From: a virus
Lineage: Duplodnaviria > Heunggongvirae > Uroviricota > Caudoviricetes
Length of the DNA stretch: 16,754 nt
Strand: one strand, 5' to 3'
IMG/VR virus record: IMGVR_UViG_2939172355_000006
Span: 1 to 16,754 of that record
A program made the translations under genes and the position numbers. This document shows, piece by piece, positions 1 through 16,754 of this stretch. Each line of letters starts with the position of its first letter. Position 1 is the first letter of the stretch. Below the pieces are notes generated by a model. The model was given only the letters and a program-made list of their open reading frames with translations, did no database searches and was not told where the DNA came from.

Positions 1-903
1 TTATGAAAGCATAGACCGTTTACCCTCCCTGGGTACGACGGAACAGGGGTCCTGATGGATAATCACATCCGATCCCGGAAAACGCCGTAAAATAGCCTGC
101 TCTACCTGATCCGCCACCATATGTGCCTGAACCAAAGGCAGAGAGTCTTCCATTTCCAAATGAATCTGAATAAAGCGGGTCGGCCCTGACTGCCGCGTGC
201 GAAGATCGTGAGCGCCGCTAACACCCGGCCAGGAAGTCACGATATCAATAATTTCTTGCCGTTCCTCATCAGGCAATGCGCGATCCAGTAATGACTGTAC
301 CGCCTCATATCCCATGCGTAACGCGCTATATAAAATATAGATGCCGATTCCCAATGCAAACAGAGCATCGGCGCGATGCCAGCCGTACCAGGACAACCCC
401 AGCGCCAGCAGAATTGCGCCGTTCATCATAACATCAGACTGGTAATGTAGCATATCAGCCCTCACCGCCTGGCTTTGCGTCCGGCGCACCACCCAACGCT
501 GAAACGAGACAAGGATAATCGTACAAATTAGCGCCACAATTGTCACGATAACCCCGACGCCTGGATCTGTCATCGGTGTTGGAGATACCAGATGTTGAAT
601 ACCCGTCAAAAACAGGAATAGTGCCGAACCGGAGATAAACATACTTTGCGCCAGCGCCGCGAGGGACTCAGCTTTACCGTGACCAAACGAGTGATTATCG
701 TCGGCAGGTTGCAGGGAATATCGCACCACCAGTAAATTCGTCAACGACGCGCCGATATCCACCAGCGAATCCACCAGCGCGGCGAGAATACTCACCGACC
801 CGGTATACCACCATGCAAAAATTTTAATCAGCAATAGCAGCGAAGCCATCGCCGTCGCAGCAATCGCCGCCCGACTGACCAGCCGTCCATAAGATTGATT
901 CAT
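1..903 (-). CDS. fieF: Cation diffusion facilitator family Fe(II)/Zn(II) efflux transporter FieF (YiiP)
   Basis: Translation from the ATG at 903 ([17 protein letters not shown]...REGKRSMLS, 300 aa) matches E. coli FieF/YiiP along its whole length as I recall it; multiple hydrophobic TM segments and a charged C-terminal domain. The ORF-track start at 921 is a non-ATG extension. Stop is TAA at 1..3. Confidence 0.93.
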
Positions 904-984
904 AAATACTCCCGCTATCAACTGACGCTAGTATAACGGAAGCAAATCATCTGCAATGCATTAAGCAGCAGGCAAATTGAGGAT

Positions 985-1138: not shown

Positions 1139-1139
1139 A

Positions 1140-1358: not shown

Positions 1359-1470
1359 CGCGAGCACCTCTTCCGGTTTTGTTGATAGTGCCATTTTAGT
1401 TAAATTATCATTATAAAACAAAAAGATAAACAAAAGACATCACTCATAATCTTCTGTTTCGTACTCCACA

Positions 1471-2286
1471 TCAGAAACCGTCGCGGCGAATCAGCGTAGT
1501 GACGCCTGACTCGTTAAGCAGGTCAGCATCGGTGCCGGACTCCTGCAAATCCCAGAATACAGATGCGCTGATGCCGGTAACACCGTTCACCCCGACATTG
1601 GACAGCGTTTTATGCCAGCCCTGCTCCTGGTCGATTTTAGCGCGCAGCCCCAGCGCACGGGCGGTGGCATACGCGGTGGCGGTGGTACTGGTGACCGTAT
1701 CCCATGCGAGGAAATCCGGCCAGATGACCATCAGCTCACGCTGGCTGAAATTCTGGCGGTAGGCTTTCACCTCGGAAATGGTTTTACAGCCCCATGCGCT
1801 GATATACCCGAAAGCGCGCAGCTTCTGACAGACTGATGCCAGTGCAACAGCCACCTCTTTGGTATCCAGCCCCGGCACGCCGAGAATACGCGGTTTAACA
1901 CCGGTTACCGACTCCGCCGCCAGCAGGGCTTTCAGTCCGGTGTACTGACCGTTTTCGTCGGTGGTGCCGATGATATTGGAAACGGTCTGCGCAAGTTTCG
2001 CTTCCTCGTCGTCGCCGGTGCCGTCTTCCACACGCACGACAACGGTGACCGGTTTTGACTGGTCGGCGATGGCCTGCAACGATGCCGCCAGCGTGCCTTT
2101 TTTACCGGCCTTTGCAATTGCGCTCTGCACATTGGTAATCAGCACTGGTTTATTGAGGGGGAAGATTTCCGCATCCGCATCGCTGGCCGTGCAGACCATG
2201 CCAACAATGGCGGTGGATACGGTGGAAATGACGCGGGTGCCGTCGTTAATCTCCAGCACCTGCACGCCGTGATGATAGTCACTCAT
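1471..2286 (-). pseudogene. Tail sheath protein (P2 gpFI-like), N-terminal 271 codons only; 3'-truncated
   Basis: Product begins MSDYHHGVQVLEINDGTRVISTVSTAIVGMVCTASDADAE..., which I recognise as the N-terminus of P2-family contractile tail sheath proteins (about 390 aa when intact). The frame stops after ...TTLIRRDGF and ogr follows 110 bp downstream with no tail tube, E, T, U or D genes in between. GGAG lies 8 nt upstream of the ATG at 2286. Confidence 0.7.
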
Positions 2287-3505: not shown

Positions 3506-3645
3506 TACTCCTCCATAAAGATAGGCGCAAGCATTTAGTAATAAACCATTAACATGCCGAGATCATACCCGATCATTGAAATGTAAACACTCCCCTAAGA
3601 CGGCTGCTGGCATAATATTTTATGACATCAGCAATGCCCACCTCT

Positions 3646-3685
3646 GGCACAGAGTGGACTGTCAGATTAGGCTTTACTCTGTGCC
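3646..3685. repeat. Inverted repeat GGCACAGAGT ... ACTCTGTGCC (10 bp arms, 20 nt loop) between gene G and the cargo gene
   Basis: Perfect 10 bp arms at 3646-3655 and 3676-3685. Not followed by a U tract on either strand, so more likely a regulatory or processing structure than a simple terminator. Confidence 0.5.
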
Positions 3686-3720
3686 ATAGATATGTAAGCC
3701 CACACTAGAGCTCATACAAC

Positions 3721-4248: not shown

Positions 4249-4249
4249 A

Positions 4250-5347
4250 TTAAACGCTCGCTACATTATACCAGGTGCCATTTATATACTTTTGAACGGG
4301 TCTGTAATAAACGCCCGCTATATTATCGGCAGAGTTGGACCCTGTATCCTGAACATTAATACCAGACAATACATGACCTGACGGGCACTGGAAATTCCAT
4401 GTTTGCCAGTTGTTCACTCCATAATATTGCTGTGACCCAAGTCGAACATCTTTCACATATCTGGAATCAAAATTGCCATAGTTGCCAGGAATAACTTGCG
4501 AGCCACAAAGCCAGTTACCGTTATTATCCATGTACGCCTGACCATCGGTGCCATTGGCTGTCCTTGAGTTATTAATCATGTAGATGCCAAATTGCTTATT
4601 TCCCAGACCGCCAATCATAAATTTGCGGTCGGCATGGTCCTGACGGAGCAAAGCCTGAGCACCATCAGTGGATACCGCATTACGTCCAAAAATAACATTC
4701 TGGTCACGCATATGAATCCACATGCCTGTGCTGCTGTTAATTGCAAGGCGGTTTGCGTACACCCATGCGTTAGTTGTTATATCTCCTGTAACATCCAGAG
4801 CGTGCCCCATAGTTATGCGACCAGTTCTGAGATTCAACGAAAAGGGGCGTAGTGGCCCGATATCACCATTTTCCCCCTCATTCTCTCGTGTGGGGATAAT
4901 ATGCAGGCATTCTTCAGAACGGCGAAAAATAGCACCAAAGGATGAATTAAAGATTCTCAGTGCATTGACTGTCGATATTTTTACTTCACTGCTGAAAAGG
5001 GCTTTAACAAGGACAGACAAAGCATCCCATTTAAGATTCATCAGGTCTTTTGTTGTGGTGCCCTGACGGCTTCTCCATTTGAAATATTCATTGCCGTTGT
5101 CGCCTGTTTCAAACCACATGTATGAATCAGTGTCACCATCGGCATCATTTTTAAATCCAATCTTCGCCCAGTCAGTATTTCGAATCCAGGCAAGGATTGA
5201 GTCGTTTTCAAAAGTAAGTCCACCGGACAAGGTATCGCCATTTTTTTGCACGGCGTTCCCGGCTCGGTTTACCGTTTCCTGTAAACCGAGATATTCGATA
5301 ACGGCGGCAACGGTCGATTTAGCCAGAATACCGTGAGCGCGCTGGTT
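4250..5347 (-). pseudogene. Tail fiber protein (P2 gpH-like), C-terminal ~365 codons; 5'-truncated, no start codon
   Basis: The frame opens directly after an in-frame stop at 5348-5350 and reads ...GILAKSTVAAVIEYLGLQETVNRAGNAVQKNGDTLSGGLTFENDSILAWIRNTDWAKIGF...[17 protein letters not shown], matching the conserved middle and C-terminal receptor-binding part of P2-type tail fibers. The N-terminal baseplate-attachment domain is missing. The track start at 5251 is a GTG inside the fragment. Confidence 0.72.
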
Positions 5348-5691
5348 TCAGGTTCATACTCAATCACCGCCCCGTCAGGGAAACGGATATGCAGGGCATC
5401 CGCCGACGCAGACGGCGCGGGGTTATCGCCGGAATAAATCCCCGGCAGAACGAACGCCGTGTCGAGTTCACCACCCACGGCCAGAATCAGCACCTGTTCC
5501 CCCACGGAAGGTGCCCACCATGTGCGCGAACGCCCGGCGCGATGGGTCAGCCACTGAAGCCAGTCGGTGCACATGCCGCCGGTCTGCACACGGCAGCGAC
5601 CGGCATTAAGGTCGGTTTCGACGATAATGCCGGTGCGGATCATGTTGCGCAGTGCGCGCGCGAGTTCCTGAATATTTGCGAGAGTGTTCAT
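5269..5691 (-). pseudogene. Baseplate spike protein (P2 gpV-like), N-terminal fragment fused out of frame into the tail fiber remnant
   Basis: From the ATG at 5691: MNTLANIQELARALRNMIRTGIIVETDLNAGRCRVQTGG...IRFPDGAVIEYEPETSALTV matches the gpV N-terminus, then reads FWLNRPLPPLSNISVYRKR*, which is the tail fiber DNA in a different frame. Baseplate genes W, J and I are absent. Confidence 0.7.
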
Positions 5692-5774
5692 GCGTGTGAG
5701 ATTGCACAATATATAAAAGTTATGCTATCTGGATTCATTTGTAGAACGACCATACAACATTCGAGGAGAGCGTA

Positions 5775-6560
5775 ATGTTCAGTGATAATGTGACTAATGC
5801 GTGGTGGTTTATCTCTTTGTATCTATTTTTATTAATAGCATTAACATTTGTTACCTTTGGTAAAAGTAATCTTATGAGGTTTATTGCACATCATTTCAAT
5901 CTTGAGTATTCAGACAGAAAGTTAAAAATGCTCGACAAAAAATGGCGCGACATTCAACTATTTAAAATAATTAACGGAATCAATGTATCAGGCATCGAAG
6001 ATGTGAGAATGATACAGCAGGGGCTGATTGATGGAAAACTAAAAACATCGTATTTTTTCCTTACTCGCTTCTGGGGTGACATAACAAAACCACCACACAT
6101 AATTAAAACAACAATTGTAATTCTGGCCAGTATTATTTATATTCTCTTCGCATGTTATATACACAATGAACAATCCGCTATAGTAAGGGATGCCATAGGT
6201 ATACCATATAAAAATATGATGTACTATGTTTATAGTGACAAAGTTCTTTTATCCTTCAAAAATAAAACGGTTGAATTTAATAAAACTTATAGCCTTGCCG
6301 ATTGCAAGAGTCTGCAAAACGTATTTATAAAAGACACACTTCCCGAGATCGCCTGCAATAAGCTCTTACAGCTAAACAAGGAGGACTCCGAATGGTTAAG
6401 TCAGGAGATTAAAGATAATAACAGCTACAGAAAAACATTATTAATAATGTCCCTAACCTATTTCATTTCAGGTCTGCTTATATTCCTGTCATATACAAAA
6501 TTCCTTTACGCCAATAAGAAGGTTTTAGAATACAAAGCATCAAATAAAAACCACTCATAA
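5775..6560 (+). CDS. Hypothetical integral membrane protein, 261 aa (AT-rich insertion between S and V, opposite strand to the late genes)
   Basis: ATG at 5775 preceded by GAGGAG (4 nt spacing). Three strongly hydrophobic segments (AWWFISLYLFLLIALTFVTF; IIKTTIVILASIIYILFACYI; LLIMSLTYFISGLLIFLSYT). Very AT-rich; no family recognised. Confidence 0.6.
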   Translation: MFSDNVTNAWWFISLYLFLLIALTFVTFGKSNLMRFIAHHFNLEYSDRKLKMLDKKWRDIQLFKIINGINVSGIEDVRMIQQGLIDGKLKTSYFFLTRFWGDITKPPHIIKTTIVILASIIYILFACYIHNEQSAIVRDAIGIPYKNMMYYVYSDKVLLSFKNKTVEFNKTYSLADCKSLQNVFIKDTLPEIACNKLLQLNKEDSEWLSQEIKDNNSYRKTLLIMSLTYFISGLLIFLSYTKFLYANKKVLEYKASNKNHS

Positions 6561-6570
6561 ACCTCTAAAT

Positions 6571-6597
6571 ATTGAGCGACCAGCACGGCCGCTCAAT
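6571..6597. terminator. Hairpin ATTGAGCG ... CGCTCAAT between convergent genes (membrane protein gene and S)
   Basis: 8 bp inverted repeat with an 11 nt loop, located between the two convergent stop codons (6560 and 6632). U-rich flank is modest on both sides. Confidence 0.45.
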
Positions 6598-6631
6598 GCT
6601 TAATTGCGCATCAGCCTCTGCCTGGATAAAA

Positions 6632-7084
6632 CTAACGCTCAAGGTGAGCCAGGATAATCTCTTCAATCATCTGCACATCCTCACCGGTAAAGCCGAGCAG
6701 AGGACGCGCCGGATAATCAATTTTCTTACCGTCTTTCCGGTTTTCTTCCGACAGACCGAACTGATGCACACTGGCGATTTTCGGTGACTTCCCGCCGTAA
6801 AACTCCATTGATGCCTGTTCCGGGCTGGCGCGGATATGCAAAAAACGACTGGTGATAAGTTTCGCAAACATTTTTCGCTTAACACGACCGGTCTTTTTTC
6901 TGGCGCTCTGCTGCTGGCGTGGCGCGTAGGGTGTGCCGTCCGGAGTTTTCTGTGCCATCACCCGACGCTGCTGACTCTGCCGCAGGCGTTTCGCCAGTTC
7001 GGCACTCAGTCGCCGACGCCCTGACGGTGACAGCGATTCAATCAGTCCGGTCAGCCGGTCTTCAAAACGCTTAAACTCATTCAT
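6632..7084 (-). CDS. Tail completion protein S (P2 gpS-like)
   Basis: 150 aa MNEFKRFEDRLTGLIESLSPSGRRRLSAELAKRLRQSQQRRVMAQKTPDGTPYAPRQQQ...IILAHLER; matches P2 gpS in length and sequence as recalled. Start overlaps the end of R by 8 nt. Confidence 0.85.
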   Translation of the reverse strand: MNEFKRFEDRLTGLIESLSPSGRRRLSAELAKRLRQSQQRRVMAQKTPDGTPYAPRQQQSARKKTGRVKRKMFAKLITSRFLHIRASPEQASMEFYGGKSPKIASVHQFGLSEENRKDGKKIDYPARPLLGFTGEDVQMIEEIILAHLER

Positions 7085-7544
7085 CCCACTTGCTCACCAG
7101 TTCGCCATTGATATACAGCTCCATCGGGCGGGTGACCGGCTCCGGCGGCGGAGGTTCCGGGATATTCTTCACATGCAGCGCGCCGTCCACCTCACTGACC
7201 AGCGTGCGCTCGGTCAGCATCAGGCTGATACTGATATCAAAGCTGCTGTCATTGTTGATGTCCGCATAAAACGTGAAGCCCTTTTTCTGGCCTGCGTCGG
7301 TGGTCATGATGTCGGGCTGATTTTCCCGCAGCCACGCTAGCACCGGCACGATGAGCAGGTCAAAATCACCGGTAAAGTCGGTCACAATGACATTGAGCGT
7401 GTAACGCTTTTCAAATGACAGCGACCTCGCCAGTGTGGAGGCAATACTCCCGTTATCCACGAATATCCGCAGCATCTCGGGACTGGTTTTCAGCACCGTG
7501 ACAGCATCAGTCAGCGCCCTGCGCAGGCTGTCGGGTTTGAGCAT
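7077..7544 (-). CDS. Tail completion protein R (P2 gpR-like)
   Basis: 155 aa MLKPDSLRRALTDAVTVLKTSPEMLRIFVDNGSIASTLARSLSFEKRYTLNVIVTDFTGDFDLLIVPVLAWLREN...; matches P2 gpR in length and sequence as recalled. Confidence 0.85.
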   Translation of the reverse strand: MLKPDSLRRALTDAVTVLKTSPEMLRIFVDNGSIASTLARSLSFEKRYTLNVIVTDFTGDFDLLIVPVLAWLRENQPDIMTTDAGQKKGFTFYADINNDSSFDISISLMLTERTLVSEVDGALHVKNIPEPPPPEPVTRPMELYINGELVSKWDE

Positions 7545-7797
7545 CGTTTTCGTCCTGACAGTGTTTAATCATTTTTACCTGGCTGGCACAGCGTGCCAGC
7601 GCGTTCTCAAGCTGCCGGATATCAGCACTTAAATCGCCGTTCGTCTCCGGGTCACTGCCCGGCATCGGGCAAAGGCTCACTTTCGGGCAGGCGTTGTGGA
7701 CAATCACTGGCGTCGGCGCAGGCCGGGCGCTGGTGCAACCGGCGCACAGCATCAGGCAGGTCAGCGCCGTACCAGCGGCGAAAATCTTCGTTTTCAT
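7507..7797 (-). CDS. lysC: LysC, outer-membrane lipoprotein spanin (Rz1-like), encoded out of frame within the 3' part of lysB
   Basis: From the ATG at 7797: MKTKIFAAGTALTCLMLCAGC... has a signal peptide with a lipobox (LCAGC), Pro-rich, 96 aa. Embedded in an alternative frame of the lysB region (overlap 7652-7797) and extending into R, the known P2 spanin arrangement. The ORF-track extension to 7914 is rejected. Confidence 0.7.
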   Translation of the reverse strand: MKTKIFAAGTALTCLMLCAGCTSARPAPTPVIVHNACPKVSLCPMPGSDPETNGDLSADIRQLENALARCASQVKMIKHCQDENDAQTRQPAQGAD

Positions 7798-8077
7798 TAA
7801 GTAACCTCGTGATGGTTTTCTCGCGCTGTGCTTCACGCTTCGCGGCGTTCTCCAGCTCCTGACGCAGTGCCACCTGCGCCAGCTCGTTTTTGTCTGCCCT
7901 GGTAAGGGCAACATGAAGCTGATTTTTCAGCATGGTGATGGTCGTCTGCTGTTCACTGGCGACGTTGTTCGCCCTGTCCAGCGAGGCGCGCAGGCTGGCA
8001 TTTTTGTGTTTCACCAGAAACAGACCGGCCACCGCCAGTGATAACAACACGACCAGCACAATCATCAGCTTTGACAT
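7652..8077 (-). CDS. lysB: LysB, inner-membrane spanin (Rz-like)
   Basis: 141 aa with an N-terminal TM segment (MSKLMIVLVVLLSLAVAGLFLV) followed by a charged coiled-coil-like region; matches P2 LysB. Confidence 0.8.
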   Translation of the reverse strand: MSKLMIVLVVLLSLAVAGLFLVKHKNASLRASLDRANNVASEQQTTITMLKNQLHVALTRADKNELAQVALRQELENAAKREAQREKTITRLLNENEDFRRWYGADLPDAVRRLHQRPACADASDCPQRLPESEPLPDAGQ

Positions 8078-8490
8078 GGTTCCCGCCCCTCAAAACGCTG
8101 ACAGCAGGCCGTACGTATCAGCCGGAAGAACACCGATGCCACGAGATAAATCAGCGCGGTAAAAATCCCCCCGGCAGCGACCAGCGAGATAAACGTCGCC
8201 ACCATCACTACCAGAGCCACTGACCGCCTGCGCCACGGCACCGGCTGCAAAAACAGCGCCGTGACAATCTTCACGGCCAGCGATTCCGGCGGCAGCTCCC
8301 GCCCGTAACGTTCCAGTACATACTCAGTGGCATACACGCCGACACCACCGGCAACCACACAGATAACCGTCGCCAGAATCGCCCAGGCGGCGACAAAACT
8401 GACGGCCACGCTCTGCGGGTAAATCAGGGACAGTGCCAGCATCAGCGCCAGCGACACGTTCAGCATCAGTGAAAGGGATAATTTCTTCAT
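8065..8490 (-). CDS. lysA: LysA, membrane protein of the P2 lysis cassette (lysis timing)
   Basis: 141 aa MKKLSLSLMLNVSLALMLALSLIYPQSVAV... with four hydrophobic segments; matches P2 LysA. No holin (Y) or endolysin (K) gene lies upstream of it; a portal fragment on the other strand abuts its start codon. Confidence 0.8.
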   Translation of the reverse strand: MKKLSLSLMLNVSLALMLALSLIYPQSVAVSFVAAWAILATVICVVAGGVGVYATEYVLERYGRELPPESLAVKIVTALFLQPVPWRRRSVALVVMVATFISLVAAGGIFTALIYLVASVFFRLIRTACCQRFEGREPCQS

Positions 8491-9364
8491 GGTGTTTACT
8501 CCGTTTACCGGTCTGGCAAAAAGCCTGCGTGCTGCCGTGCATCACAGCTCACCGATTTACGTCAAACGTAACATTCTGGCCTCAACGTTTATCCCACACC
8601 CGTGGCTTTCTCAGCAGGATTTCAGCCGCTTTGTGCTGGATTTTCTGGTATTCGGTAATGCGTTTCTGGAAAAGCGTTACAGCACCACCGGTAAGGTCAT
8701 CAGACTGGAAACCTCACCGGCAAAATATACCCGCCGTGGCGTGGAGGAGGATGTTTACTGGTGGGTGCCGTCCTTCAACGAGCCGACACCTTTCGCGCCC
8801 GGCTCCGTGTTTCACCTGCTGGAGCCGGATATTAATCAGGAGCTGTACGGTCTGCCGGAATATCTCAGCGCCCTTAACTCTGCCTGGCTGAATGAGTCGG
8901 CCACGCTGTTCCGCCGCAAGTATTACGAAAACGGCGCTCATGCCGGATATATCATGTACGTCACTGATGCCGTGCAGGATCGCAACGATATCGAAATGCT
9001 TCGCGAAAACATGGTGAAGTCGAAAGGCCGCAACAACTTTAAAAACCTGTTTCTCTATGCCCCGCAGGGGAAAGCTGACGGCATTAAAATTATCCCGCTC
9101 AGTGAAGTGGCAACGAAGGACGATTTTTTTAATATCAAAAAAGCCAGCGCCGCTGACCTGCTGGACGCGCACCGCATCCCCTTTCAGTTGATGGGCGGCA
9201 AGCCGGAGAACGTCGGGTCGCTGGGTGATATTGAGAAAGTAGCAAAGGTCTTTGTCCGCAATGAGCTTATCCCGTTACAGGACAGGATCCGCGAGATAAA
9301 CGGCTGGCTCGGTCAGGAGGTCATCCGATTTAAAAACTACTCACTGGACACTGACAACGGCTGA
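8489..9364 (+). pseudogene. Portal protein (P2 gpQ-like), C-terminal ~270 codons; 5'-truncated
   Basis: ...SPIYVKRNILASTFIPHPWLSQQDFSRFVLDFLVFGNAFLEKRY...YIMYVTDAVQDRNDIEMLRENMVKSKGRNNFKNLFLYAPQGKADGIKIIPL...GQEVIRFKNYSLDTDNG reads as the C-terminal part of a P2-family portal. Strand and position next to cos fit the P2 map. The N-terminal part and the terminase gene P are missing; the exact 5' boundary is uncertain. Confidence 0.6.
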
Positions 9365-9391: not shown

Positions 9392-9533
9392 ACACCCCGT
9401 CATCACGCCCTCACACGTTCGCCACTGTACAAAACACCCCGCAGACACACCAACGCCCCGGCAGGCCGACTAAACGCCATCACGACGCGCTCAGACGCTG
9501 AAAAAATAAAATCAGCACCACCGCCAGCGCGCA

Positions 9534-9552
9534 GTGCTTTCCCCGCCTCGCC
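9534..9552. other. cos site: 19 nt P2-type cohesive end sequence (reverse orientation in this window)
   Basis: GTGCTTTCCCCGCCTCGCC at 9534-9552 is the reverse complement of GGCGAGGCGGGGAAAGCAC, which I recall as the P2 cohesive end. Its position between the portal gene 3' end and the old/tin-position cargo is as expected. Confidence 0.55.
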
Positions 9553-9779
9553 CGCCCGCTTCATGGGTCGGTTTTGATGCAATTCCAAAAGCCGTCCAAA
9601 CTCTCTTAGGCTAAATGTCCAACGAGAAAATAGTTCTTTGAATGTGAATGCATTTTAATGCAGAGTTATGCCCAGCATTTTTGTACACTTCGATGTATCA
9701 AATGCGCTGCAAACGATCAAATATGGATGTTTTATCAAGCATCCCCCAAAAGATATTTACATCATCCCATGAGGTTAAG

Positions 9780-10853
9780 ATGGATAACAAAATCGTAGAA
9801 ATTGAGACAAATAAGCTTGATTTTGACCCTAAAAACCCACGTTTCTTTCGTCTCAATGATGCCAGTAACGCTGCAACAGTCATTGAGGAAATGTTAGATG
9901 ACGAAAGTGTCCACGATCTAATGCTATCAATCGGTCAGCAAGGTTACTTTCCTGGAGAACCTTTATTGGCAGTAAAAAGCAATGGAAACTACATCGTGGT
10001 TGAGGGAAACAGACGCTTAGCTGCTGTAAAGTTGCTCAATGGAGATCTGCTTCCTCCAAAAAGAAAACTTAAAGGTGTGCAAGAAATCATTGATGATACT
10101 ACCAATAAACCTAAGAAGCTTCCCTGCATCATTTATGAAAACCGAGAGGATGTACTGAGATATATCGGTTATCGTCATATAACTGGGGTCAAAGAATGGG
10201 ACTCATTATCTAAAGCCAAATACCTTAAAGAGTTATGTGATACTTTTTATTCACATGAGCCTAAAGAGATAGTATTAAAAAATCTGGCTCGTGAGATTGG
10301 GAGTAAACCACATTATGTTGCAACACTTCTCACTGCACTGAACTTATATGAAGTCGCGCATGACCATGAGTTTTTTAATTTACCCATGAAGGCTTCTGAC
10401 GTGGAATTTTCATATATAACCACAGCTTTGGGATATTCAAAAATCACAAACTGGTTAGGTCTACAGGATAAAAAGGATTTTTTAGACCCAAATTTAAATG
10501 AAGAAAACCTTAAGCGTTTATTCTCTTGGTTTTTTGTGCCTGACCAACAAGGTAGAACCATCATCGGTGAGTCTCGAAGAATAAAAGATATTGCAGCAGT
10601 GGTTGAGAAACCCGAAGCAATTGAAATTCTCATGAAAAGTTCAAACTTGGATGAAGCATATCTATATACCAGCGGAGAAAGAGAAGCATTAGATAAAGCA
10701 CTAAACGCAGCTAGTGTTAAATTAAGAGTAGTTTGGGATATGCTACTTAAAGCTAAAGAATTAACATTAGAGCATGAAGAGGCTGCATCTGAAATTTTTG
10801 AGATGTCAAAAAATATTAGAAATCAGATCAGAAGCAAAAGGGAGGATGATTGA
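9780..10853 (+). CDS. ParB/Srx-like nuclease-domain protein, 357 aa (cargo gene 1 in the old/tin position)
   Basis: ATG at 9780 preceded by GAGG (7 nt spacing). The N-terminal ~90 aa carry ParB N-terminal domain signatures: IVEIETNKLDFDPKNPR ... VHDLMLSIGQQGYFPGEPLLAVKSNGNYIVVEGNRRLAAVKLL (GxRR box at about nt 10005-10016). C-terminal two thirds are helical and unrecognised. AT-rich. The track start at 9648 has no RBS and is rejected. Confidence 0.8.
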   Translation: MDNKIVEIETNKLDFDPKNPRFFRLNDASNAATVIEEMLDDESVHDLMLSIGQQGYFPGEPLLAVKSNGNYIVVEGNRRLAAVKLLNGDLLPPKRKLKGVQEIIDDTTNKPKKLPCIIYENREDVLRYIGYRHITGVKEWDSLSKAKYLKELCDTFYSHEPKEIVLKNLAREIGSKPHYVATLLTALNLYEVAHDHEFFNLPMKASDVEFSYITTALGYSKITNWLGLQDKKDFLDPNLNEENLKRLFSWFFVPDQQGRTIIGESRRIKDIAAVVEKPEAIEILMKSSNLDEAYLYTSGEREALDKALNAASVKLRVVWDMLLKAKELTLEHEEAASEIFEMSKNIRNQIRSKREDD

Positions 10854-11883
10854 GATTATGATTACAAATCTTGATTCAATGCCTTCTAATGAGCCTTATT
10901 TATGGGCTGATTATATTGAGATATTGGCCTTAACTAATATCGACAGGTCATTCAGTCGAGGAGACCTATATAGCACACTGCAAGCTCAACCCGAAGCAGT
11001 ACTAGCTGAAACAGATGAAGCAGAAGAAGAGGGCGTTTATGATGTTGATGATGAAAATGATACGCCTGTACGCAAGAGAACAAAACGAAGTGTTAGTCGA
11101 GCATATACTGACAGAAAGTGGAGCTATGCGATAGGCTTCATACGACAACGCATTGATTTATTTGGGGATAGTTACCCTTTTACTTTATCAGAAGACAACG
11201 ATACTGTAGAGTTACGTGATATATCAGAAAAGCCACTGGAACATTTAGAAAGACTATATTTAGCTTTACTAATCTGTGCTAACATAAAATATGTCAACAT
11301 AATGAGCAGAAGAGAGATAACGCGCAGTTTTGAACTAATTAGTTTACCTATTTTTGAAAGCCTAATGCCTAGCGGTAGCATAATAAAAGCATGCTGGGCT
11401 TCTGGTGGTCAAGCGGCCCCTTACACTGGAACTCTATATAATAAATTTAAGAGTATTGCTTCCGATATCCGTTGCACAGCGAACTTCAAAGAACGAGATT
11501 TCAGTCGAGGAAATAGTGGTGACGGAGGCCTTGACATAATTGCCTGGCATCCAATGGGAGATCAACGAGATGCCATCCCTATTTCTTTTGTTCAGTGTGG
11601 CTGTTCTCAAGAAGAGTGGGAAGCGAAGCAGCTTGAGGCCTCACCTGCGATGCTCTACAGTAAATTCCCCGTAGCTCACCGATGGGCAACTTATTATTTC
11701 TTACCTCAAGATCTACGATGGATAGATGGTGAGTGGGCGCATAAAAATAAGTTAGGCGATGCTATTTTTGTTGATCGCCTAAGATTAATCAATTTAACCA
11801 GAGCATCTGATAATATTGATCACAGTCAAAATATTAGCTATCTAGATATCATCCTTGATCCTTCCAGCGCGATCGCTGCTTAA
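10846..11883 (+). CDS. Hypothetical ~340 aa protein, candidate PD-(D/E)xK-type nuclease (cargo gene 2), translationally coupled to the ParB-like gene
   Basis: Start ATG at 10846 overlaps the upstream stop (ATGATTGA) with GGAGG immediately 5'; an alternative ATG is at 10858. C-terminal region has ...GNSGDGGLDIIAWHP-(x21)-ISFVQCGCSQEEWEAK..., compatible with a D ... E-x-K catalytic core (about nt 11520-11630). Stop TAA at 11881-11883 overlaps the convergent methyltransferase stop. Confidence 0.65.
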   Translation: MIEIMITNLDSMPSNEPYLWADYIEILALTNIDRSFSRGDLYSTLQAQPEAVLAETDEAEEEGVYDVDDENDTPVRKRTKRSVSRAYTDRKWSYAIGFIRQRIDLFGDSYPFTLSEDNDTVELRDISEKPLEHLERLYLALLICANIKYVNIMSRREITRSFELISLPIFESLMPSGSIIKACWASGGQAAPYTGTLYNKFKSIASDIRCTANFKERDFSRGNSGDGGLDIIAWHPMGDQRDAIPISFVQCGCSQEEWEAKQLEASPAMLYSKFPVAHRWATYYFLPQDLRWIDGEWAHKNKLGDAIFVDRLRLINLTRASDNIDHSQNISYLDIILDPSSAIAA

Positions 11884-12818
11884 TCCCATAAATCTGGAAG
11901 GTTTCTAGCAACCGCCTCAAACAATGGAGGCGGTACTGCATTACCTACCACAGTATATTTCATATTAATAGAAGCCCGTTCAGTTTCTGGGAAAATTAAA
12001 TCCCCAAAACCTTGTAAAATAGCAGCCTCTCGATAGCTAAACCTACGAGCTGGTGCATCCGAAGTAAATTGCCACTTATCAGGTCCCAATTTTTCTAATG
12101 TTGGACTTATTGGATGTAGAGGCATATGTCTAGGATTTGCAACAATTGTTTTAGATATCTGATCCCAATCTTGCCTACGGTTTCGCGATAGATAATACCA
12201 ATGAAAATCGGCGTCATAAAACTCGCCAACAGGCCAAACAGGCATATGCCCAATAGCATCACGAATTGTGGAATATGGTGTCAAACCATCACCATGTGTT
12301 GGTTTTGGAAATTTGTATGTAATACCGTAGTCCTTTCGTATTCCTACGATAAAGATTCGCTTCCTATCTTGGGATACCCCATAATGGGACGCATTCAGAA
12401 TTTGCGAGCTTACTGTATAACCTGCTTCTTCGAAAACTTTGAATTGATCCTTTAATAAATGCTCAAAGTTACGCCTTACCATACCAGAGACATTCTCTAC
12501 AATGAATGCTTTTGGCTTAATTTTACTCAAAGCACGGGCAAACTCTAAATATAGTGTATTAATCTTTCTATCTGCCTTCCTTGCCCCACCTTGACTAAAT
12601 CCTTGGCAAGGATAGCATCCGATGAGCAACTCAGCAGAAGGGAACGACTGGAGCCCTGAGATATCGCCCAAAATGTAGTCAGTTTCAGGATGGTTTTCTA
12701 AGTAAACGTCCCTTGCGTAAGGCAAAATATCATTTGCCATAAGCACATTGAAACCTGCGTTCAAAACTCCCGCATCAGAACCACCACATCCAGAAAAAAG
12801 TGAAACTACAGTTGGCAT
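11880..12818 (-). CDS. DNA (cytosine-5)-methyltransferase, 312 aa (cargo gene 3)
   Basis: Canonical m5C-MTase motifs in standard order: FSGCGG (motif I, aa 8-13), PCQGFS (motif IV, aa 70-75), ENV (motif VI, aa 108-110), QDRKRIFIVG (motif VIII), GNAVPPPL (motif X). ATG at 12818 preceded by GGAGG at 5 nt. Convergent with the upstream ORF, with a 4 nt overlap (TTAA). Confidence 0.9.
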   Translation of the reverse strand: MPTVVSLFSGCGGSDAGVLNAGFNVLMANDILPYARDVYLENHPETDYILGDISGLQSFPSAELLIGCYPCQGFSQGGARKADRKINTLYLEFARALSKIKPKAFIVENVSGMVRRNFEHLLKDQFKVFEEAGYTVSSQILNASHYGVSQDRKRIFIVGIRKDYGITYKFPKPTHGDGLTPYSTIRDAIGHMPVWPVGEFYDADFHWYYLSRNRRQDWDQISKTIVANPRHMPLHPISPTLEKLGPDKWQFTSDAPARRFSYREAAILQGFGDLIFPETERASINMKYTVVGNAVPPPLFEAVARNLPDLWD

Positions 12819-13060
12819 TGACCCCTCCTAAAAACCGACCGCGTATTATAGCGAAACACCCCGTTGGGAAAAGCTAGATTTTGCCAAGTCTTGATATTCT
12901 CACGTTTTAGTAGTTGTGGCCATCTTTAACGAGAAAAAGATAAAATTGACTTCTCATTAATTTTCAATAGGTTTAATTGTAAGCTCAAACTAACGCCTCG
13001 CGACACTCGTTATTCAACCCCGCCAGCCCTGAAAACAAGTTTCACGACTGGCGGCGTTCT

Positions 13061-13267
13061 CTATCGTCTGCGTTGTGGTGGCGCAACTCTGGACTGACCG
13101 ATATGGTTAAACCGCCCGTAATTATCCCGGACTATTTCGGCACACCCGACCAGCTCATCGGGCGTCAGATTTTCGTTGACCATAATCCGCTGTAAACGCT
13201 GAACAATAGCCATCAGCTTGATATTTTTAGTTTTATGGTGCGGTATCTCGCCTGGTATTCTGTGCAT
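13061..13267 (-). CDS. Small hypothetical protein, 68 aa, translationally coupled (TAATG) to the upstream gene
   Basis: ATG at 13265-13267 overlaps the TAA of the preceding gene. MHRIPGEIPHHKTKNIKLMAIVQRLQRIMVNENLTPDELVGCAEIVRDNYGRFNHIGQSRVAPPQRRR. No recognisable domain; could be a regulator. Low confidence that it is expressed. Confidence 0.4.
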   Translation of the reverse strand: MHRIPGEIPHHKTKNIKLMAIVQRLQRIMVNENLTPDELVGCAEIVRDNYGRFNHIGQSRVAPPQRRR

Positions 13268-13719
13268 TATCCAAGCCACCCGTTTTGCTGTGCACGCTCC
13301 ATCTGTTCATCTGAATAGTTCCATGCTCCATCCGTGGCAACCATTGCCCCGCCAGACATCCCCGTCTCTGGTTCATACATAACAGCAAGGCCGAGCTGAT
13401 GCATAATTTCATGATTAATTCTGAATACCAGACCACGCTCACTAAGTTCTTTCCAGTTCACAATCTCACATGCGCCTGTATTAAGCCGCTCAATACTTAG
13501 CAAGACATAATCTTCCAGCCAGTCTGACAGGTCAGTAACATCTGTTATCCGGGCTTCAACCTTTCGCCCCGTATACACACCCTGCACCCATTCATGCAAA
13601 ATCAACGTGTCCCCGCGCTCATAATTACGGTCATTTTTCCGAAACTCTGCGCGTTTCTTTCCTTCCAGCACAAGGTCAAAATATTTTGCGTGCAGCTTTA
13701 CCTCGTGAATTTTTGCCAT
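13267..13719 (-). CDS. Hypothetical 150 aa protein with ASCH/DUF3850-like N-terminal region and a C-terminal HExxH motif
   Basis: ATG at 13719 overlaps the upstream stop (TAATG) with GGAG 9 nt upstream. [44 protein letters not shown]... resembles the small ASCH-like proteins found in P2-family early operons; the tail contains FRINHEIMHQLGL (HExxH). Confidence 0.55.
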   Translation of the reverse strand: MAKIHEVKLHAKYFDLVLEGKKRAEFRKNDRNYERGDTLILHEWVQGVYTGRKVEARITDVTDLSDWLEDYVLLSIERLNTGACEIVNWKELSERGLVFRINHEIMHQLGLAVMYEPETGMSGGAMVATDGAWNYSDEQMERAQQNGWLG

Positions 13720-14252
13720 TATGTCCACTCCATTACTGTTGAGAATCCCGGCCACTCATCAGCGACCGGATACGTGAATTTTTTCCCGTCATAATTTACG
13801 GTCGCTCCACGCGCCAGCGCCTCAAGCTCCCATCGCTGAGGCCTGATACCGTTCTGAGCAAGGTCAACGCGGATACGGGTGATTTGCATTCGTTCCGACC
13901 GGGTCAGTCTGGCCGACGGTGCAATTTCATGTGTTTTTAACGGGCTTCCGTTTCTTTGTTGACGATTTGGTGTTTTCAGGCCGTGTTTTAATGCTCCCCT
14001 GAGCGCCCTCACGACCTCCGGGTCATTCCATTCGATAACACCGTCATCAACCAGATTTAGCACTGCTGCGGCGTGCTCAGAAGGTGTGGGAGCCGGTAAC
14101 GAAGCATCACTACCGGTGAGCTTTGTGATGTGGCGAATCATGGCGTCAAGATGAGAAGAAAAGCGCGTTGCTGCGTCGGCCTGTGCTTCGGTTCTGACCT
14201 GTTGCAGCAGTAATGCGTATTTACCGCACTGATTTTCAGAAACTGTATGCAT
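13719..14252 (-). CDS. Early-operon ORF, 177 aa; probably a deletion fusion whose C-terminal ~140 aa derive from the 3' end of replication initiator gene A
   Basis: ATG at 14252 with GGAG at 6 nt. The C-terminal part (...[38 protein letters not shown]...[21 protein letters not shown]) matches what I recall as the C-terminus of P2 gpA, but no rolling-circle initiator domain and no ~2.3 kb A gene exist anywhere between B and cos. The fusion interpretation is an inference. Confidence 0.5.
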
Positions 14253-14315
14253 GACTTTCTCCAGGCAAAAAGAAGCCCCGCACAATTAAGTGCGTTAAAA
14301 ACTCTGGTTAATTAC

Positions 14316-14816
14316 TTAATGCAGATATTGCTCTGGTTTTACCGACGTCAGGATTGTCGGTGCATACTCAAACAGGCTGAATAATTCACGTAATGCACGG
14401 AATAAGGCATCACGCCAGTAACATGATTCTTCATTAATTCGCCAGTATGGCTGGTTGAATTCTTTTTCAGTCAATCCGGCATGCATAAATAAAGTACGGC
14501 GCTGACTGACAGTTAAAAAGCTAATATATGCATACTCACTTGCACCGACCTGACGGCGTTTTGAGAATGCCCCACGCAATTCATCAATTGCACATACCAG
14601 TCGTTCACGTTCGACGTCGTTCATTTCTTCAAAACGCATCGTTGCGTGACGCTGTTTTAACTGTGCATGAAAGCAAACCGTTAGCCGTTCGCGCTCCATC
14701 ATCTGATTATAATAATCACATGTATCCTGCCAGCGAGGGACGGCAAGATGCTTGCCAATTATCCGGCGCATAGCTGCTGGCTGTTTTTCAACGAGATTGA
14801 GCGTCATCACTGTCAT
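14316..14816 (-). CDS. Replication protein B (P2 gpB-like, helicase loader)
   Basis: 166 aa MTVMTLNLVEKQPAAMRRIIGKHLAVPRWQDTCDYYNQMMERERLTVCFHAQLKQRH...; length and position (after cox and a small ORF) match P2 gene B. Confidence 0.65.
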   Translation of the reverse strand: MTVMTLNLVEKQPAAMRRIIGKHLAVPRWQDTCDYYNQMMERERLTVCFHAQLKQRHATMRFEEMNDVERERLVCAIDELRGAFSKRRQVGASEYAYISFLTVSQRRTLFMHAGLTEKEFNQPYWRINEESCYWRDALFRALRELFSLFEYAPTILTSVKPEQYLH

Positions 14817-14983
14817 TTCCAGCCCCTCCGGCTTTTCAGAAAGGTCAGAGCCTTTTTTAACGGACTCTGTTTTTTGGTGCGGATAATGATTCCCTTACGC
14901 CCCTTACCGTGGGTGATGGTGAAGTCAATCGCCCTGGGGCTTTCGTTACGCAGTAACTGAGCAATACAACGCGGTTCACTCAT
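14813..14983 (-). CDS. Small early-operon ORF between cox and B (P2 orf78 position), 56 aa
   Basis: ATG at 14983 lies 2 nt after the cox stop; the stop overlaps the B start (ATGA). MSEPRCIAQLLRNESPRAIDFTITHGKGRKGIIIRTKKQSPLKKALTFLKSRRGWK. Start choice is uncertain (alternative ATG at 15010 has no RBS). Confidence 0.4.
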   Translation of the reverse strand: MSEPRCIAQLLRNESPRAIDFTITHGKGRKGIIIRTKKQSPLKKALTFLKSRRGWK

Positions 14984-14985
14984 AA

Positions 14986-15258
14986 TCACAACCCCATCCA
15001 CAAAAGCCATGCATCACGCTGTTCAACTGGTCGGTTATAAAACGCCTCTCGTACAGCGCGATTAAACTCTGGAATGAAAACCCACTTCTCACCGACACGA
15101 GCGTTCGGCTTACTTGGATCACGAAGCTCAATAACTGGCAACTTATTCTCTTTTACCATCTTGACTACAGCCGTTTCTGGCTTACCAAGTAACTCTGCAA
15201 ACTTAACCGTATGTACCGCATCAATCGGGTACTGAATCACATAGTCATTGACTTCCAT
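14986..15258 (-). CDS. cox: Cox-like excisionase / directionality factor and early-promoter regulator
   Basis: 90 aa, first gene of the rightward early operon, divergent from C. The central region (...KLPVIELRDPSKPNARVGEKWVFIPEFN...WLLWMGL) resembles P2-family Cox proteins (P2 Cox is 91 aa). Confidence 0.7.
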   Translation of the reverse strand: MEVNDYVIQYPIDAVHTVKFAELLGKPETAVVKMVKENKLPVIELRDPSKPNARVGEKWVFIPEFNRAVREAFYNRPVEQRDAWLLWMGL

Positions 15259-15297
15259 TGATTAGCCCTTTTTGCTTTCGTGTTACCCTTATTAGAT

Positions 15298-15338
15298 CCA
15301 GTCCCTTCTAGGTCGCACCTGTCCTTTCTAGGGACTGG
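15298..15338. promoter_or_regulatory. Operator-like element in the cox-C divergent promoter region: two 12 bp direct repeats (GTCCCTTCTAGG / GTCCTTTCTAGG) nested in an inverted repeat CCAGTCCCT ... AGGGACTGG
   Basis: Direct repeats at 15301-15312 and 15321-15332, 20 bp centre to centre (two helical turns); the outer 9 bp arms at 15298-15306 and 15330-15338 are perfect reverse complements. P2 C repressor is known to bind direct repeats at Pe. Confidence 0.45.
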
Positions 15339-15373
15339 CTAACACACTCAAAAGGTCACCAATACACAACCTT

Positions 15374-15403
15374 TTGACGGGAATATAAGTCACCAATAGG
15401 TTA
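15374..15403 (+). promoter_or_regulatory. Candidate Pc promoter for the repressor gene (TTGACG, 17 bp spacer, TAGGTT), implying a near-leaderless transcript
   Basis: -35 TTGACG at 15374-15379 and -10 TAGGTT at 15397-15402 with a 17 bp spacer. The predicted start is about 7 nt before the C ATG, and there is no Shine-Dalgarno sequence ahead of C. Confidence 0.35.
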
Positions 15404-15410
15404 CTGTCAA

Positions 15411-15704
15411 ATGCAGACATTCGAAAAACTGAAAGCGATTAGGAAAGCAGAAGGCTTAACACAGGCGAAATTCAGCGAAATTAGCGGGATAGCTCTAGGA
15501 ACAGTCAAAAATTACGAAAGTGGGCATAAAGACCCTGGTCTCAGCATCGTTATGCGAGTCACAAATACGCCTTTATTTAAAAAATATACGCTCTGGTTAA
15601 TGACTGGTGATACGTCACCACAAGCTGGTCAGATCGCGCCGGCTCTCGCACACATTGGGCAAAAACCAACAGAATCAGACCACTCCGAAAAACAGACTGG
15701 TTAA
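15411..15704 (+). CDS. C: Immunity repressor C (P2 C-like)
   Basis: 97 aa (P2 C is 99 aa); the ...FKKYTLWLMTGDTSPQAGQIAPALAHIGQKPTESDHSEKQTG tail is close to P2 C as recalled. Divergent from cox and upstream of int, as in P2. Confidence 0.8.
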   Translation: MQTFEKLKAIRKAEGLTQAKFSEISGIALGTVKNYESGHKDPGLSIVMRVTNTPLFKKYTLWLMTGDTSPQAGQIAPALAHIGQKPTESDHSEKQTG

Positions 15705-15773
15705 CACTCTATAAACATTACATTTTCACCATTTGTTACCAAGATGGTGAATACAGCGTCAGAGGGCTTTCTT

Positions 15774-16754
15774 ATGTCAATTAAGAAGCTCGATGATGGA
15801 CGCTATGAAGTGGACATTAGACCTCGCGGTCGCGACGGAAAACGCATCCGCAGGAAATTTGAAAGAAAAGCTGAGGCTGTAGCATTTGAGCGATACACAA
15901 TCGCCTACGCCAGCCAGAAAGAATGGGCAGGTCAGCGAGCAGATCGCAGAACTTTGAGTGAGTTGCTGAACATCTGGTGGAAATATCACGGGCAAAACCA
16001 CGAGCATGGAACAAAAGAGTTTAATCATCTGCTCAAAACCATCAGCGGCATAGGTGATATACCAGTGAGCCGGATGAGCAAAAGAGCTTTGATGGATTAT
16101 CGTTCCATGCGACTACGTGATGGTATCAGTGCCGCAACGATAAACCGTGACATGTACCGATTATCCGGCATGTTCACAAAATTAATTCAATTGGATGAAT
16201 TTTCCGGGCAACACCCAATTCACGGACTGCCGCCACTGGCGGAGGCCAACCCTGAAATGACGTTCCTGGAAAAAGCAGAAATCGAAAAACTGTTAAATGT
16301 TTTGGATGGTGATGACTTACTTGTCGCACTTTTATGTCTGAGCACTGGAGGAAGATGGACGGAAGTTGCCACGCTAAAACCAGCACAGATTACAAATTGC
16401 AGGGTTACCTTCCTGAAAACCAAAAACGGTAAAAAGCGAACCGTGCCGATTTCTGAGGAACTGGAGAAAAAAGTTAAAGAGGAGGCCAGCGCTAAATTAT
16501 TCAAAGTTGATTATGAGAAGTTTTGCGGGATTTTACGCAGAGTGAAGCCAGATATACCACCCAATCAGGCAACCCACATCCTGCGGCATACATTCGCAAG
16601 CCATTTCATGATGAATGGGGGCAATATAATCGCACTGCAACAGATTCTGGGACATGCGAGCATTCAGCAGACGATGGCCTATGCGCACCTTGCGCCTGAC
16701 TACCTGCAAAATGCCGTCGCGCTGAATCCTCTAAAAGGCGGAGTGACGTTATAA
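15774..16754 (+). CDS. int: Tyrosine integrase (P2 Int-like)
   Basis: ATG at 15774 preceded by AGAGGG (7 nt spacing). 326 aa with an N-terminal arm-binding region (MSIKKLDDGRYEVDIRPRGRDGKRIRRKFERKAEAVAFE) and catalytic-domain signatures near the C-terminus (HILRHTFASH; LGHASIQQTMAYAHL with the catalytic Tyr). Stop TAA is the last codon of the window. Confidence 0.9.
   Translation: MSIKKLDDGRYEVDIRPRGRDGKRIRRKFERKAEAVAFERYTIAYASQKEWAGQRADRRTLSELLNIWWKYHGQNHEHGTKEFNHLLKTISGIGDIPVSRMSKRALMDYRSMRLRDGISAATINRDMYRLSGMFTKLIQLDEFSGQHPIHGLPPLAEANPEMTFLEKAEIEKLLNVLDGDDLLVALLCLSTGGRWTEVATLKPAQITNCRVTFLKTKNGKKRTVPISEELEKKVKEEASAKLFKVDYEKFCGILRRVKPDIPPNQATHILRHTFASHFMMNGGNIIALQQILGHASIQQTMAYAHLAPDYLQNAVALNPLKGGVTL

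Follow-up and report, generated by a model that had tools for sequence, protein, structure and literature searches.

The window, i.e., the whole 16,754-nucleotide stretch analyzed here, carries a tightly packed cassette of three genes (A, B, and M, in that order; positions 9780–12818) in an AT-rich block that adjoins a P2 cos site and is flanked by P2 phage genes. The locus is laid out as follows:

9590..9779, plus strand: AT-rich leader from cos to gene A, presumed from its composition to be the A–B promoter region
9780..10853, plus strand: gene A, 357-aa ParB/Srx-fold protein
10858..11883, plus strand: gene B, with 341 aa if translation begins at ATG 10858 and 345 aa if it begins at ATG 10846, as in RefSeq
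11880..12818, minus strand: gene M, 312-aa C5-cytosine DNA methyltransferase (MTase), convergent with B
12819..12860, minus strand: probable expression signals of M's own, from sequence inspection

Across positions 9500–12900, GC content is 0.37–0.43, compared with 0.51–0.59 on the structural-gene (cos) side and 0.45–0.53 on the early-gene side. This profile and the open reading frames bear out the AT-rich three-gene block proposed in the initial annotation, including the lengths of A and M. The block had also been assigned to the slot between cos and the replication genes, and intact relatives (E. coli SMS-3-5 and phage Wphi) carry it there, with portal gene Q and cos on one side and replication gene A on the other. 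The module hence occupies the P2 cos-proximal site, a defence hotspot (PMC9122126). Its host element is a P2-type prophage remnant: in the window, Q lacks its N-terminal part, and all that is left of gpA is a C-terminal piece that now forms part of the open reading frame at 13719..14285.

Genes A and B overlap at ATGATTGA, in which ATG 10846 precedes the A stop codon (TGA, 10851–10853). The overlap had been taken as the basis of translational coupling; both the overlap and the tight coupling hold, but the true start of B is probably ATG 10858, 4 nt past the A stop, since homologue alignments begin at the second Met (M5, nearly invariant; cluster P0001, 341 aa). Whichever start is used, a single GGGAGG Shine-Dalgarno serves the two coupled genes. 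A longer version of A, starting at 9648, is unsupported because homologues begin with MDNK (cluster P0121, 357 aa). At the other end of B, its stop codon and that of M overlap as TTAA (11880–11883), as first described. Upstream of M, on the minus strand, lie a GGAGGGG Shine-Dalgarno (12822–12828) and a perfect TATAAT (12845–12850), and this probable promoter went uncalled in a consensus scan because of its weak −35 element. The scan otherwise stayed at background level, with no convincing promoter in the 9590..9779 leader. When the module and the A and M upstream regions were searched for common operators or repeats resembling parS, only short, chance-level matches emerged.

Structure prediction for A yields an N-terminal NTP-binding-type domain, a central helix-turn-helix (HTH), and long C-terminal helices. 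The predicted structure resembles ParB, KorB (the best structural match), and Srx, so that the original call of a ParB/Srx-like protein is sustained at the level of fold, with an HTH in addition. A displays the motifs FDPxNPR, EGNRR, and ENRED, invariant and of the box I/II/III type, with an intact GxxRR P-motif; it thus combines the ParB/Srx N-domain fold and the GxxR P-motif by which members of the ParB-CTPase superfamily are recognized. Profile similarity to this superfamily is weak for Pfam ParB_N (E-value 0.021; score 15.3 against a cutoff of 26.3) and falls below threshold for TIGR00180, the ParB/RepB/Spo0J model (30.5 bits against a cutoff of 58.45), and A has no Pfam match to DUF262. 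RefSeq names A a 'ParB N-terminal domain-containing protein', and PHROGs assigns it to a family of unknown function. A is conserved more strongly than B.

For B, the structural model points to a divergent restriction-endonuclease-like protein of the PD-(D/E)xK type whose N-terminal half is helical and resembles a winged helix. The helical character of this half rules out an SRA-like m5C reader. Candidate active-site residues are D22, E25, D226, D230, D239, Q250, K261, and E264. The Lys of the canonical (D/E/Q)xK motif is replaced by Gly (Q250-C-G252); for B to act as a nuclease, a Lys elsewhere, perhaps K261, would have to stand in for it. B has no family match in Pfam, NCBIfam, or PADLOC and none by sequence in the PDB, and a Foldseek comparison of its model with the PDB gave no significant match; it is listed as a family of unknown function in PHROGs and as hypothetical in RefSeq. 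These searches placed neither A nor B in a non-defence family. The initial annotation had recognized no named system in this gene combination, and our literature search likewise found no published characterization of the trio, which appears in Rousset 2022 Table S5A as raw rows only ('DNA_methylase + hypothetical + ParBc') and is not among the systems tested there.

M is a C5-cytosine MTase, matching PF00145 over its full length (9.9e-62) as well as TIGR00675, with the catalytic motifs FSGCGG, PCQ, and ENV present in its translation. It aligns with M.HaeIII across residues 4–307, target-recognition domain included (1.6e-48), and the equivalents of HaeIII S224, R225, R227, and R243, whose roles as GGCC contacts have been described (PMC3526282), are invariant in 29/29 distinct module MTases. 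From this alignment, the predicted target of M is GGCC or a close relative.

We next evaluated the distribution of the cassette, using a B profile to recover loci from species-representative genomes (n = 20). A convergent MTase of one subfamily follows B in all 20 loci, and A precedes B in 19. Oryzomicrobium and P2-like prophages of E. coli show the same order, and this layout is shared by a second deep clade (A ~32% and B ~24% identical) from Pseudomonas, Burkholderia, Methylophilaceae, and Ferrovum. Since the order A-B-M recurs in all related gamma- and betaproteobacterial loci examined, with the stop codons of B and M overlapping or abutting in most of them, the trio is not a chance neighborhood. 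No locus examined carried A and B without any MTase, although Ramlibacter locus L003 has none of the family type, its nearest Dcm being 44% identical and located next to a Type IIG enzyme. A Vsr mismatch endonuclease, typical of m5C restriction-modification (R-M) systems, adjoins the module in L003 and in two other loci (L011 and L028). The exact version in the window was detected in 104 of 5,426 complete E. coli genomes (~2%). Many Gamma- and Betaproteobacteria have more distant versions, whether on the chromosome, in integrative elements, or in P2-like phages, and the B superfamily alone comprises >2,200 clusters at 50% identity. The trio thus travels as a unit far beyond E. coli.

Within these loci, the three genes follow different evolutionary paths. 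In pairwise identity, A tracks B closely (r = 0.965), whereas M correlates with either at ~0.45 (0.455 with A). M remains 60–98% identical across loci, while A drops to 26% and B to 19%. Nearest neighbors of M cross the A/B clades, indicating that M has been swapped between them: relative to phage vB_EcoM-12474II, for instance, the window's M is 98% identical but its A only 32% and its B 25%, with a recombination breakpoint exactly at the B/M junction. This constancy and clade crossing of M suggest that a single methylation mark serves many diverged A/B pairs. Decay is similarly uneven. IS5 or ISKpn26 interrupts B in three E. coli genomes, A and the 5′ part of B are gone from a metagenome-assembled locus (L025), and another locus (L026) combines a 5′-truncated A with a B that has an internal deletion; the latter two retain a full-length M, and every one of these five events falls on A or B while sparing M. 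The insertion sample is small (for three intragenic events, P is ~0.04 if targeting is taken to be uniform), and IS5 prefers certain targets. In a fourth E. coli genome (NZ_CP048915), an IS2 lies upstream of A, in the leader interval. The initial annotation had proposed either an R-M-type or a modification-dependent module; because M is always kept in decay and the module is linked to Vsr, a self-protecting methylase is favored, and the modification-dependent option becomes less likely.

Taken together, we interpret the block as a conserved module of the R-M type whose restriction arm consists of two proteins, one of them a ParB-type switch, and put the probability of this reading at roughly 0.6. 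M, expressed from its own promoter, would mark resident DNA, probably at GGCC, and co-translated A and B would form the restriction arm directed against DNA without the mark. B would provide a divergent PD-(D/E)xK nuclease center along with a winged-helix-like DNA-binding half, and A an NTP-binding N-gate (GxxRR), an HTH, and C-terminal dimerizing helices. A may bind the unmodified target, with NTP binding leading to a closed or sliding state, and in that state it may recruit or license B to cut. Much more tentatively, the module could represent a new R-M class, in which a ParB-type CTP/NTP-gated clamp would be loaded onto unmethylated GGCC-type sites and, by sliding, come to license a dedicated PD-(D/E)xK nuclease, so that discrimination and cleavage would both hinge on the clamp. 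In that case it would be the first R-M system with a ParB-CTPase switch, in place of an ATP or GTP motor, in its restriction arm, and its A/B pairs would diversify rapidly under phage counter-defence pressure while one conserved methylation mark stays in place. Counting against the R-M reading with a ParB-type switch, A might only regulate expression; KorB is a repressor.

A regulatory role for A would fit a plain Type II pair, in which B alone cuts, M methylates, and A is a KorB/ParB-like controller that times B in the manner of a C protein. A does lie directly upstream of B, to which it is translationally coupled, i.e., in the usual position of a C gene, and B has a putative DNA-binding half of its own. 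We nevertheless consider this unlikely, as a 357-aa protein with invariant NTP-pocket motifs would be costly for a size-limited phage if it were a mere repressor, the upstream regions of A and M have no operator-like repeat in common, and A is not only more conserved than B but co-evolves with it residue for residue, as physical partners do. An obligatory, co-evolving A argues against a two-component system, in line with the original view that the block is unlike a plain type II pair. Alternatively, A could serve M as a ParB-like loader or activator, comparable to the ParB-dependent phage T-dioxygenases, leaving B as a stand-alone nuclease. In phages, DNA-modifying enzymes often need a protein with the ParB fold or are joined to one in a fusion (PMC12704722; PMC13229309), and PD-lambda-5, which shares the N-terminal ParB-like domain of A, contains a methyltransferase domain. 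This pairing is improbable, however, given that loci with a missing or shortened A (L025 and L026) keep an intact M, that M is exchanged freely between A clades, and that A is coupled to B, whereas M has a predicted promoter of its own on the opposite strand.

The block might also be no single system, A and B being a toxin/abortive-infection or Type IV-like pair and M an orphan or anti-restriction methylase. Unrelated cargo is often stacked in P2 hotspots (PMC9122126), and recombination can separate the MTase from A/B, the breakpoint falling exactly between B and M; yet outside P2 phages, too, the A-B-M order persists in two proteobacterial classes, the MTase belonging to one subfamily throughout and the B and M stop codons mostly overlapping or abutting. 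In addition, the N-terminal half of B is not of the SRA-like type, and a pair that cuts m5C-containing DNA would be self-toxic beside an m5C methylase, so that we give this option little credence. Least probable by far is that A is a ParB for partition or plasmid maintenance, which would make the block a prophage segregation or maintenance module. The RefSeq name of A and its ParB fold plus HTH would fit, but A falls short of the TIGR00180 cutoff, no ParA/CbiA-type gene was found among the annotated neighbors in any of the inspected loci, and the obligate nuclease-like and methylase partners would be left unexplained. The 'putative partitioning system' reported from P2 hotspots is a different cassette, which in the table of Rousset et al. 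appears to consist of StbA and Plasmid_stab_B, and identity with it was ruled out.

With Type II systems that have m5C methylases of the HaeIII/BsuRI/NgoPII type (GGCC), the module shares a HaeIII-like C5 MTase with conserved GGCC-contact residues, an adjacent convergent gene of predicted nuclease fold, an occasional Vsr, and a methylase kept when the nuclease-like gene decays. Unlike these, it has an obligatory ParB-like third gene co-evolving with the nuclease-like one; moreover, no sequence match links B to a known restriction-enzyme family, and B is without the canonical Lys. Among NTP-dependent R-M systems, LlaJI has McrBC-like R1/R2 proteins, CglI and NgoAVII have R and N proteins, and Type III systems belong to the same category; all pair a methylase, m5C or other, with a restriction arm split into nuclease and nucleotide-dependent DNA-handling subunits, and their partner proteins are a likely working analogy for A and B. 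A differs in having a ParB/Srx fold rather than that of an AAA+ GTPase or SF2 helicase-like ATPase, bears no sequence or fold relation to these partners, and is predicted to use NTP.

Several defence systems share individual components with the module. PD-lambda-5 is a validated two-gene, methylase-containing system described as a compact RM+Abi, from a screen in which P2-like prophages gave 7/21 systems (Vassallo et al. 2022, PMC9519451). PD-Lambda-5_A profiles match A at 1e-24 in its N-terminal ParB-like domain, and both systems include a methyltransferase. However, the match is confined to A residues 1–150 (positions ~1–160 of profiles 440–500 aa long), B has no PD-Lambda-5_B match, and the module MTase is a separate Dcm-type gene; with a single domain in common, identity was ruled out. 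The uncharacterized PADLOC candidate PDC-M38, of which our literature search found no mention, includes a 715-position profile (PDC-M38A) whose positions 58–342 align with A 41–327 (6.5e-25), but this profile is twice the length of A and B has no PADLOC match at all. M matches the DruM2 profile at 1e-110; Druantia type II, which combines the DruM methylase with a DruE helicase and DruF/G, was ruled out, as A and B match no Druantia model and the flanks are P2 genes with no large helicase DruE. GmrSD, SspE, and DndB (DUF262) also link a ParB/Srx-fold NTPase domain to modification-related restriction, but they carry DGQHR/DGQQR motifs and HNH (DUF1524) and act on modified DNA or sense phosphorothioate, whereas A has EGNRR and is partnered with a PD-(D/E)xK protein and an m5C methylase; neither DUF262 nor DUF1524 was matched in the module by Pfam. 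Finally, A has the fold and domain order of the CTP-dependent clamps ParB, KorB, and Noc (NTP-binding N-domain with GxxRR, HTH, C-terminal helices), but is marginally similar in sequence and has nuclease-like and methylase partners, no ParA, and no known parS.

If the proposed reading is correct, restriction-modification has a compact form, this 3.1-kb cassette, that has been overlooked and that current defence annotation tools such as PADLOC would miss. The ParB-CTPase switch, familiar from chromosome segregation and transcription control, would then also govern an immune nuclease, a type of role that a recent (2025) fold-wide survey of ParB-CTPases flags merely as a possibility. Lysogens should then carry GGCC-type m5C methylation, with effects on cloning, McrBC compatibility, and phage host range. 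The many highly diverged A/B pairs set against one fixed methylation mark would also offer a natural experiment suited to the study of restriction-arm diversification.

The block at 9780-12818 consists of three tightly packed genes, as the initial annotation had described and as both the ORF map and the sequence confirm:

9780..10853, + strand: gene A, ParB-like protein, 357 aa (ORF map, sequence)
10858..11883, + strand: gene B, nuclease-like protein, 341 aa from the likelier ATG start (345 aa from the RefSeq start; ORF map, homologue alignment)
11880..12818, - strand: gene M, convergent C5-cytosine methyltransferase (MTase), 312 aa (ORF map, sequence)

The block is AT-rich: GC content is 0.37-0.43 between 9500 and 12900, but 0.51-0.59 towards the structural genes and cos, and 0.45-0.53 towards the early genes. 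A longer ORF for A, starting at 9648, finds no support among homologues, for which the protein cluster (P0121) has 357 aa. The proposed stop/stop overlap of B and M (TTAA) is present in the sequence. The proposed A/B overlap, ATGATTGA, is also present and corresponds to the RefSeq start of B, but homologues favour a later start: they align from the second methionine and their cluster (P0001) has 341 aa, which makes ATG 10858, 4 nt past the stop of A, the likelier true start. Whichever start is used, A and B have one strong GGGAGG ribosome-binding site in common and are translationally coupled.

We then used a B profile to scan a single genome from each species, and searched the recovered loci with A and B profiles and the MTase. 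The trio was found to co-occur well beyond the window: a convergent Dcm-type MTase directly follows B in 20/20 loci, its subfamily being the same throughout (E 1e-121 to 1e-189), and A lies directly upstream of B in 19 of them. Hosts include Enterobacteriaceae, Methylococcaceae, Gallionellaceae, Comamonadaceae, Porticoccus, and Hydrogenophilales. The P2-like phage vB_EcoM-12474II (L002, 204-3240) has the same architecture as window 9780-12818, with A 32%, B 25%, and M 98% identical, and typifies a second, diverged A/B clade with 277 relatives. Within this clade, the order A, B, and convergent MTase recurs in Pseudomonas, Burkholderia, Methylophilaceae, and Ferrovum, often with adjoining integrases. 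When 1.84 billion representatives were searched with a profile of both B clades, 2,215 clusters (at 50% identity) were retrieved. In three loci, including one from Ramlibacter (L003, 4864-11589), the module adjoins a gene for Vsr, which usually accompanies m5C methylases. The Ramlibacter locus is an exception, as A, B, and Vsr are present without the family-type methylase; the nearest Dcm, 44% identical, is found at a distance of 3 kb, next to a Type IIG enzyme of 1,044 aa, and retains the SRNR...R HaeIII-type contact residues.

At the domain level, M matches PF00145 (1e-61) and A matches ParB_N weakly (Pfam), while B has no family match among Pfam, NCBIfam, or PADLOC profiles. The structural model of A (pLDDT 86) matches two sets of structures: the N-terminal domain has the ParB/Srx fold, and the middle domain matches the DNA-binding domains of ParB, KorB, and SopB and is followed by two long C-terminal helices. 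In the light of what is established on ParB CTPases, the invariant motifs FDPxNPR, EGNRR, and ENR are counterparts of ParB boxes I-III. Because of these matched domains, helices, and motifs, A as modelled shows every element expected of an NTP-gated ParB-type DNA clamp, which bears out the ParB-like character first assigned to it. The B model (pLDDT 92, pTM 0.91) yielded no significant Foldseek match in the PDB, the top-ranked class being PD-(D/E)xK restriction-endonuclease-like. Residues D22, E25, G225, D226, D230, D239, Q250, G252, W258, K261, E264, D310, R311, and R313 are invariant in both B clades. The pattern GDGG(I/L)D...QCG presumably resembles the D...QxK motif of Mrr/MspJI, with a glycine at the position expected for the lysine; the helix that follows carries K261, which may take its place.

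A and B are tightly correlated in their pairwise identities (r = 0.965), as would be the case for proteins that interact physically, while M correlates with either at only about 0.45. The lowest identity seen for M is 60%, as compared to minima of 26% for A and 19% for B. Since the nearest MTase neighbour often comes from the opposite A/B clade, recombination appears to swap the methylase, or the A-B cassette. In E. coli, the recombination breakpoint coincides with the B/M junction, and DNA similarity between the window and vB_EcoM-12474II begins precisely where the methylase gene ends, which points to a restriction half exchanged as a cassette against a fixed methylase.

Decay of the module is similarly asymmetric. 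In three E. coli genomes (L029, L031, L036), B is interrupted by IS5 or ISKpn26; these IS5-family insertions are independent, occupy more than one site, and come from two different prophage backgrounds. A fourth genome (L030) carries IS2 in the leader upstream of A. In none of the four is A or M disrupted. Among metagenome-assembled genomes, one locus (L025) lacks A together with the 5' end of B, and in another (L026) A is truncated at its 5' end and B has an internal deletion; M is full length in both. Loci retaining A and B without any MTase numbered zero among those examined. Loss of the restriction half with M retained is as restriction-modification (R-M) logic predicts, and the asymmetry also links A with B, not with M.

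We favour, with a probability of about 0.6, an R-M-type module in which M would mark self DNA and the co-translated A-B pair would form a putative restriction arm. In this arm B would act as the nuclease, and A, as an NTP switch of ParB type, would sense or load on unmodified DNA and license B. The structural match to KorB would also suit a controller of a plain Type II pair, a role that we consider possible yet doubtful for A next to its tight covariation with B. That A instead assists the methylase is improbable: M persists where A is lost or truncated, and its correlation with A is weak. An A-B pair acting independently of M seems equally improbable, as an MTase of one subfamily follows B in every species-representative locus. 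Partition, which the ParB fold of A might suggest, is very improbable, since no ParA was found among the annotated neighbours of inspected loci.

The trio had not been recognised as a named system, and this holds: we found no characterising paper in the literature, and PADLOC, like Pfam and NCBIfam, has no model for B. In PHROGs, A and B belong to families without an assigned function (phrog_3694 and phrog_3984). PD-lambda-5, a validated system presented as a compact RM+Abi that includes a methyltransferase domain (Vassallo et al., PMC9519451), is a domain-level relative but a different system, as the match of A to PD-Lambda-5_A is limited to the N-terminal 150 residues. A also matches part of PDC-M38A, from a PADLOC candidate (PDC-M38) that is itself uncharacterised. 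Druantia was rejected because the match of M to DruM2 reflects MTase similarity only, A and B have no Druantia match, and the trio is flanked by P2 phage genes. The partitioning cassette of the P2 hotspot appears to be StbA/Plasmid_stab_B, not the trio. The A-B-M arrangement is present as raw rows, outside the tested systems, in Table S5A of Rousset et al. (PMC9122126), and is not described in a 2025 survey of the ParB-CTPase fold (PMC12704722). The same Table S5A places a 'DUF262 + DNA_methylase + HEPN' arrangement, another ParB-fold and methylase pairing, in the P2 hotspot; this may be PD-lambda-5.

An identical 3.3-kb block occurs in 104 of 5,426 complete E. coli genomes, in phage Wphi (as gp98, gp96, and Mth), and in one record labelled Peduovirus P2. 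E. coli SMS-3-5 carries it inside an intact P2-like prophage, between portal gene Q and cos on one side and a DUF3850 gene and replication gene A on the other. This is the position of the old/tin hotspot known from Rousset et al. (PMC9122126) and Vassallo et al. (PMC9519451), in agreement with the slot originally proposed. The window prophage is a degraded remnant (1-9364 and 13061-16754) adjoining fieF:

1..921, - strand: fieF
1471..2286: tail-sheath fragment (tail-fibre fragments also present)
8489..9364: portal without its N-terminus
13719..14285: ORF with a gpA C-terminal piece fused to another early gene (phrog_128 N-terminal part, phrog_91 C-terminal part)

P2-type B, cox, C, and int follow this last ORF intact. 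Phage replication and morphogenesis genes have decayed, and the defence-like trio has outlasted them. Two other AT-rich ORFs, both without Pfam or PADLOC matches, belong to families without an assigned function. One (2606-3505, - strand, 299 aa, phrog_7195) lies in an island of GC 0.35-0.39 between the tail-sheath fragment and a tail-fibre assembly gene, at the P2 Z/fun position, the second P2 defence hotspot, and is a candidate second uncharacterised cargo. The other (5775-6560, + strand, 261 aa, phrog_2407) sits where the window is richest in AT (GC 0.33), is also found in the intact SMS-3-5 prophage (WP_000490546) adjoining a virion morphogenesis gene, and lies at what we take to be the P2 orf30 position; it may mark a third variable cargo slot.

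M aligns with M.HaeIII along its full length, including the target-recognition domain. In M.HaeIII, Ser224, Arg225, Arg227, and Arg243 are reported to read GGCC (PMC3526282). Equivalents of these residues are invariant in 29/29 distinct module MTases, from which we infer a single GGCC-type mark common to many diverged A/B pairs. McrBC restricts R(m5C) DNA; if M makes GG(m5C)C, active McrBC should be incompatible with lysogens, and cloning of PD-lambda-5 likewise needed a host deleted for the mrr region. The best-supported reading is a widespread, unnamed module combining R-M logic with a ParB-fold component, which is without precedent in R-M-type modules and sets the trio apart from a plain type II pair, as first suggested.
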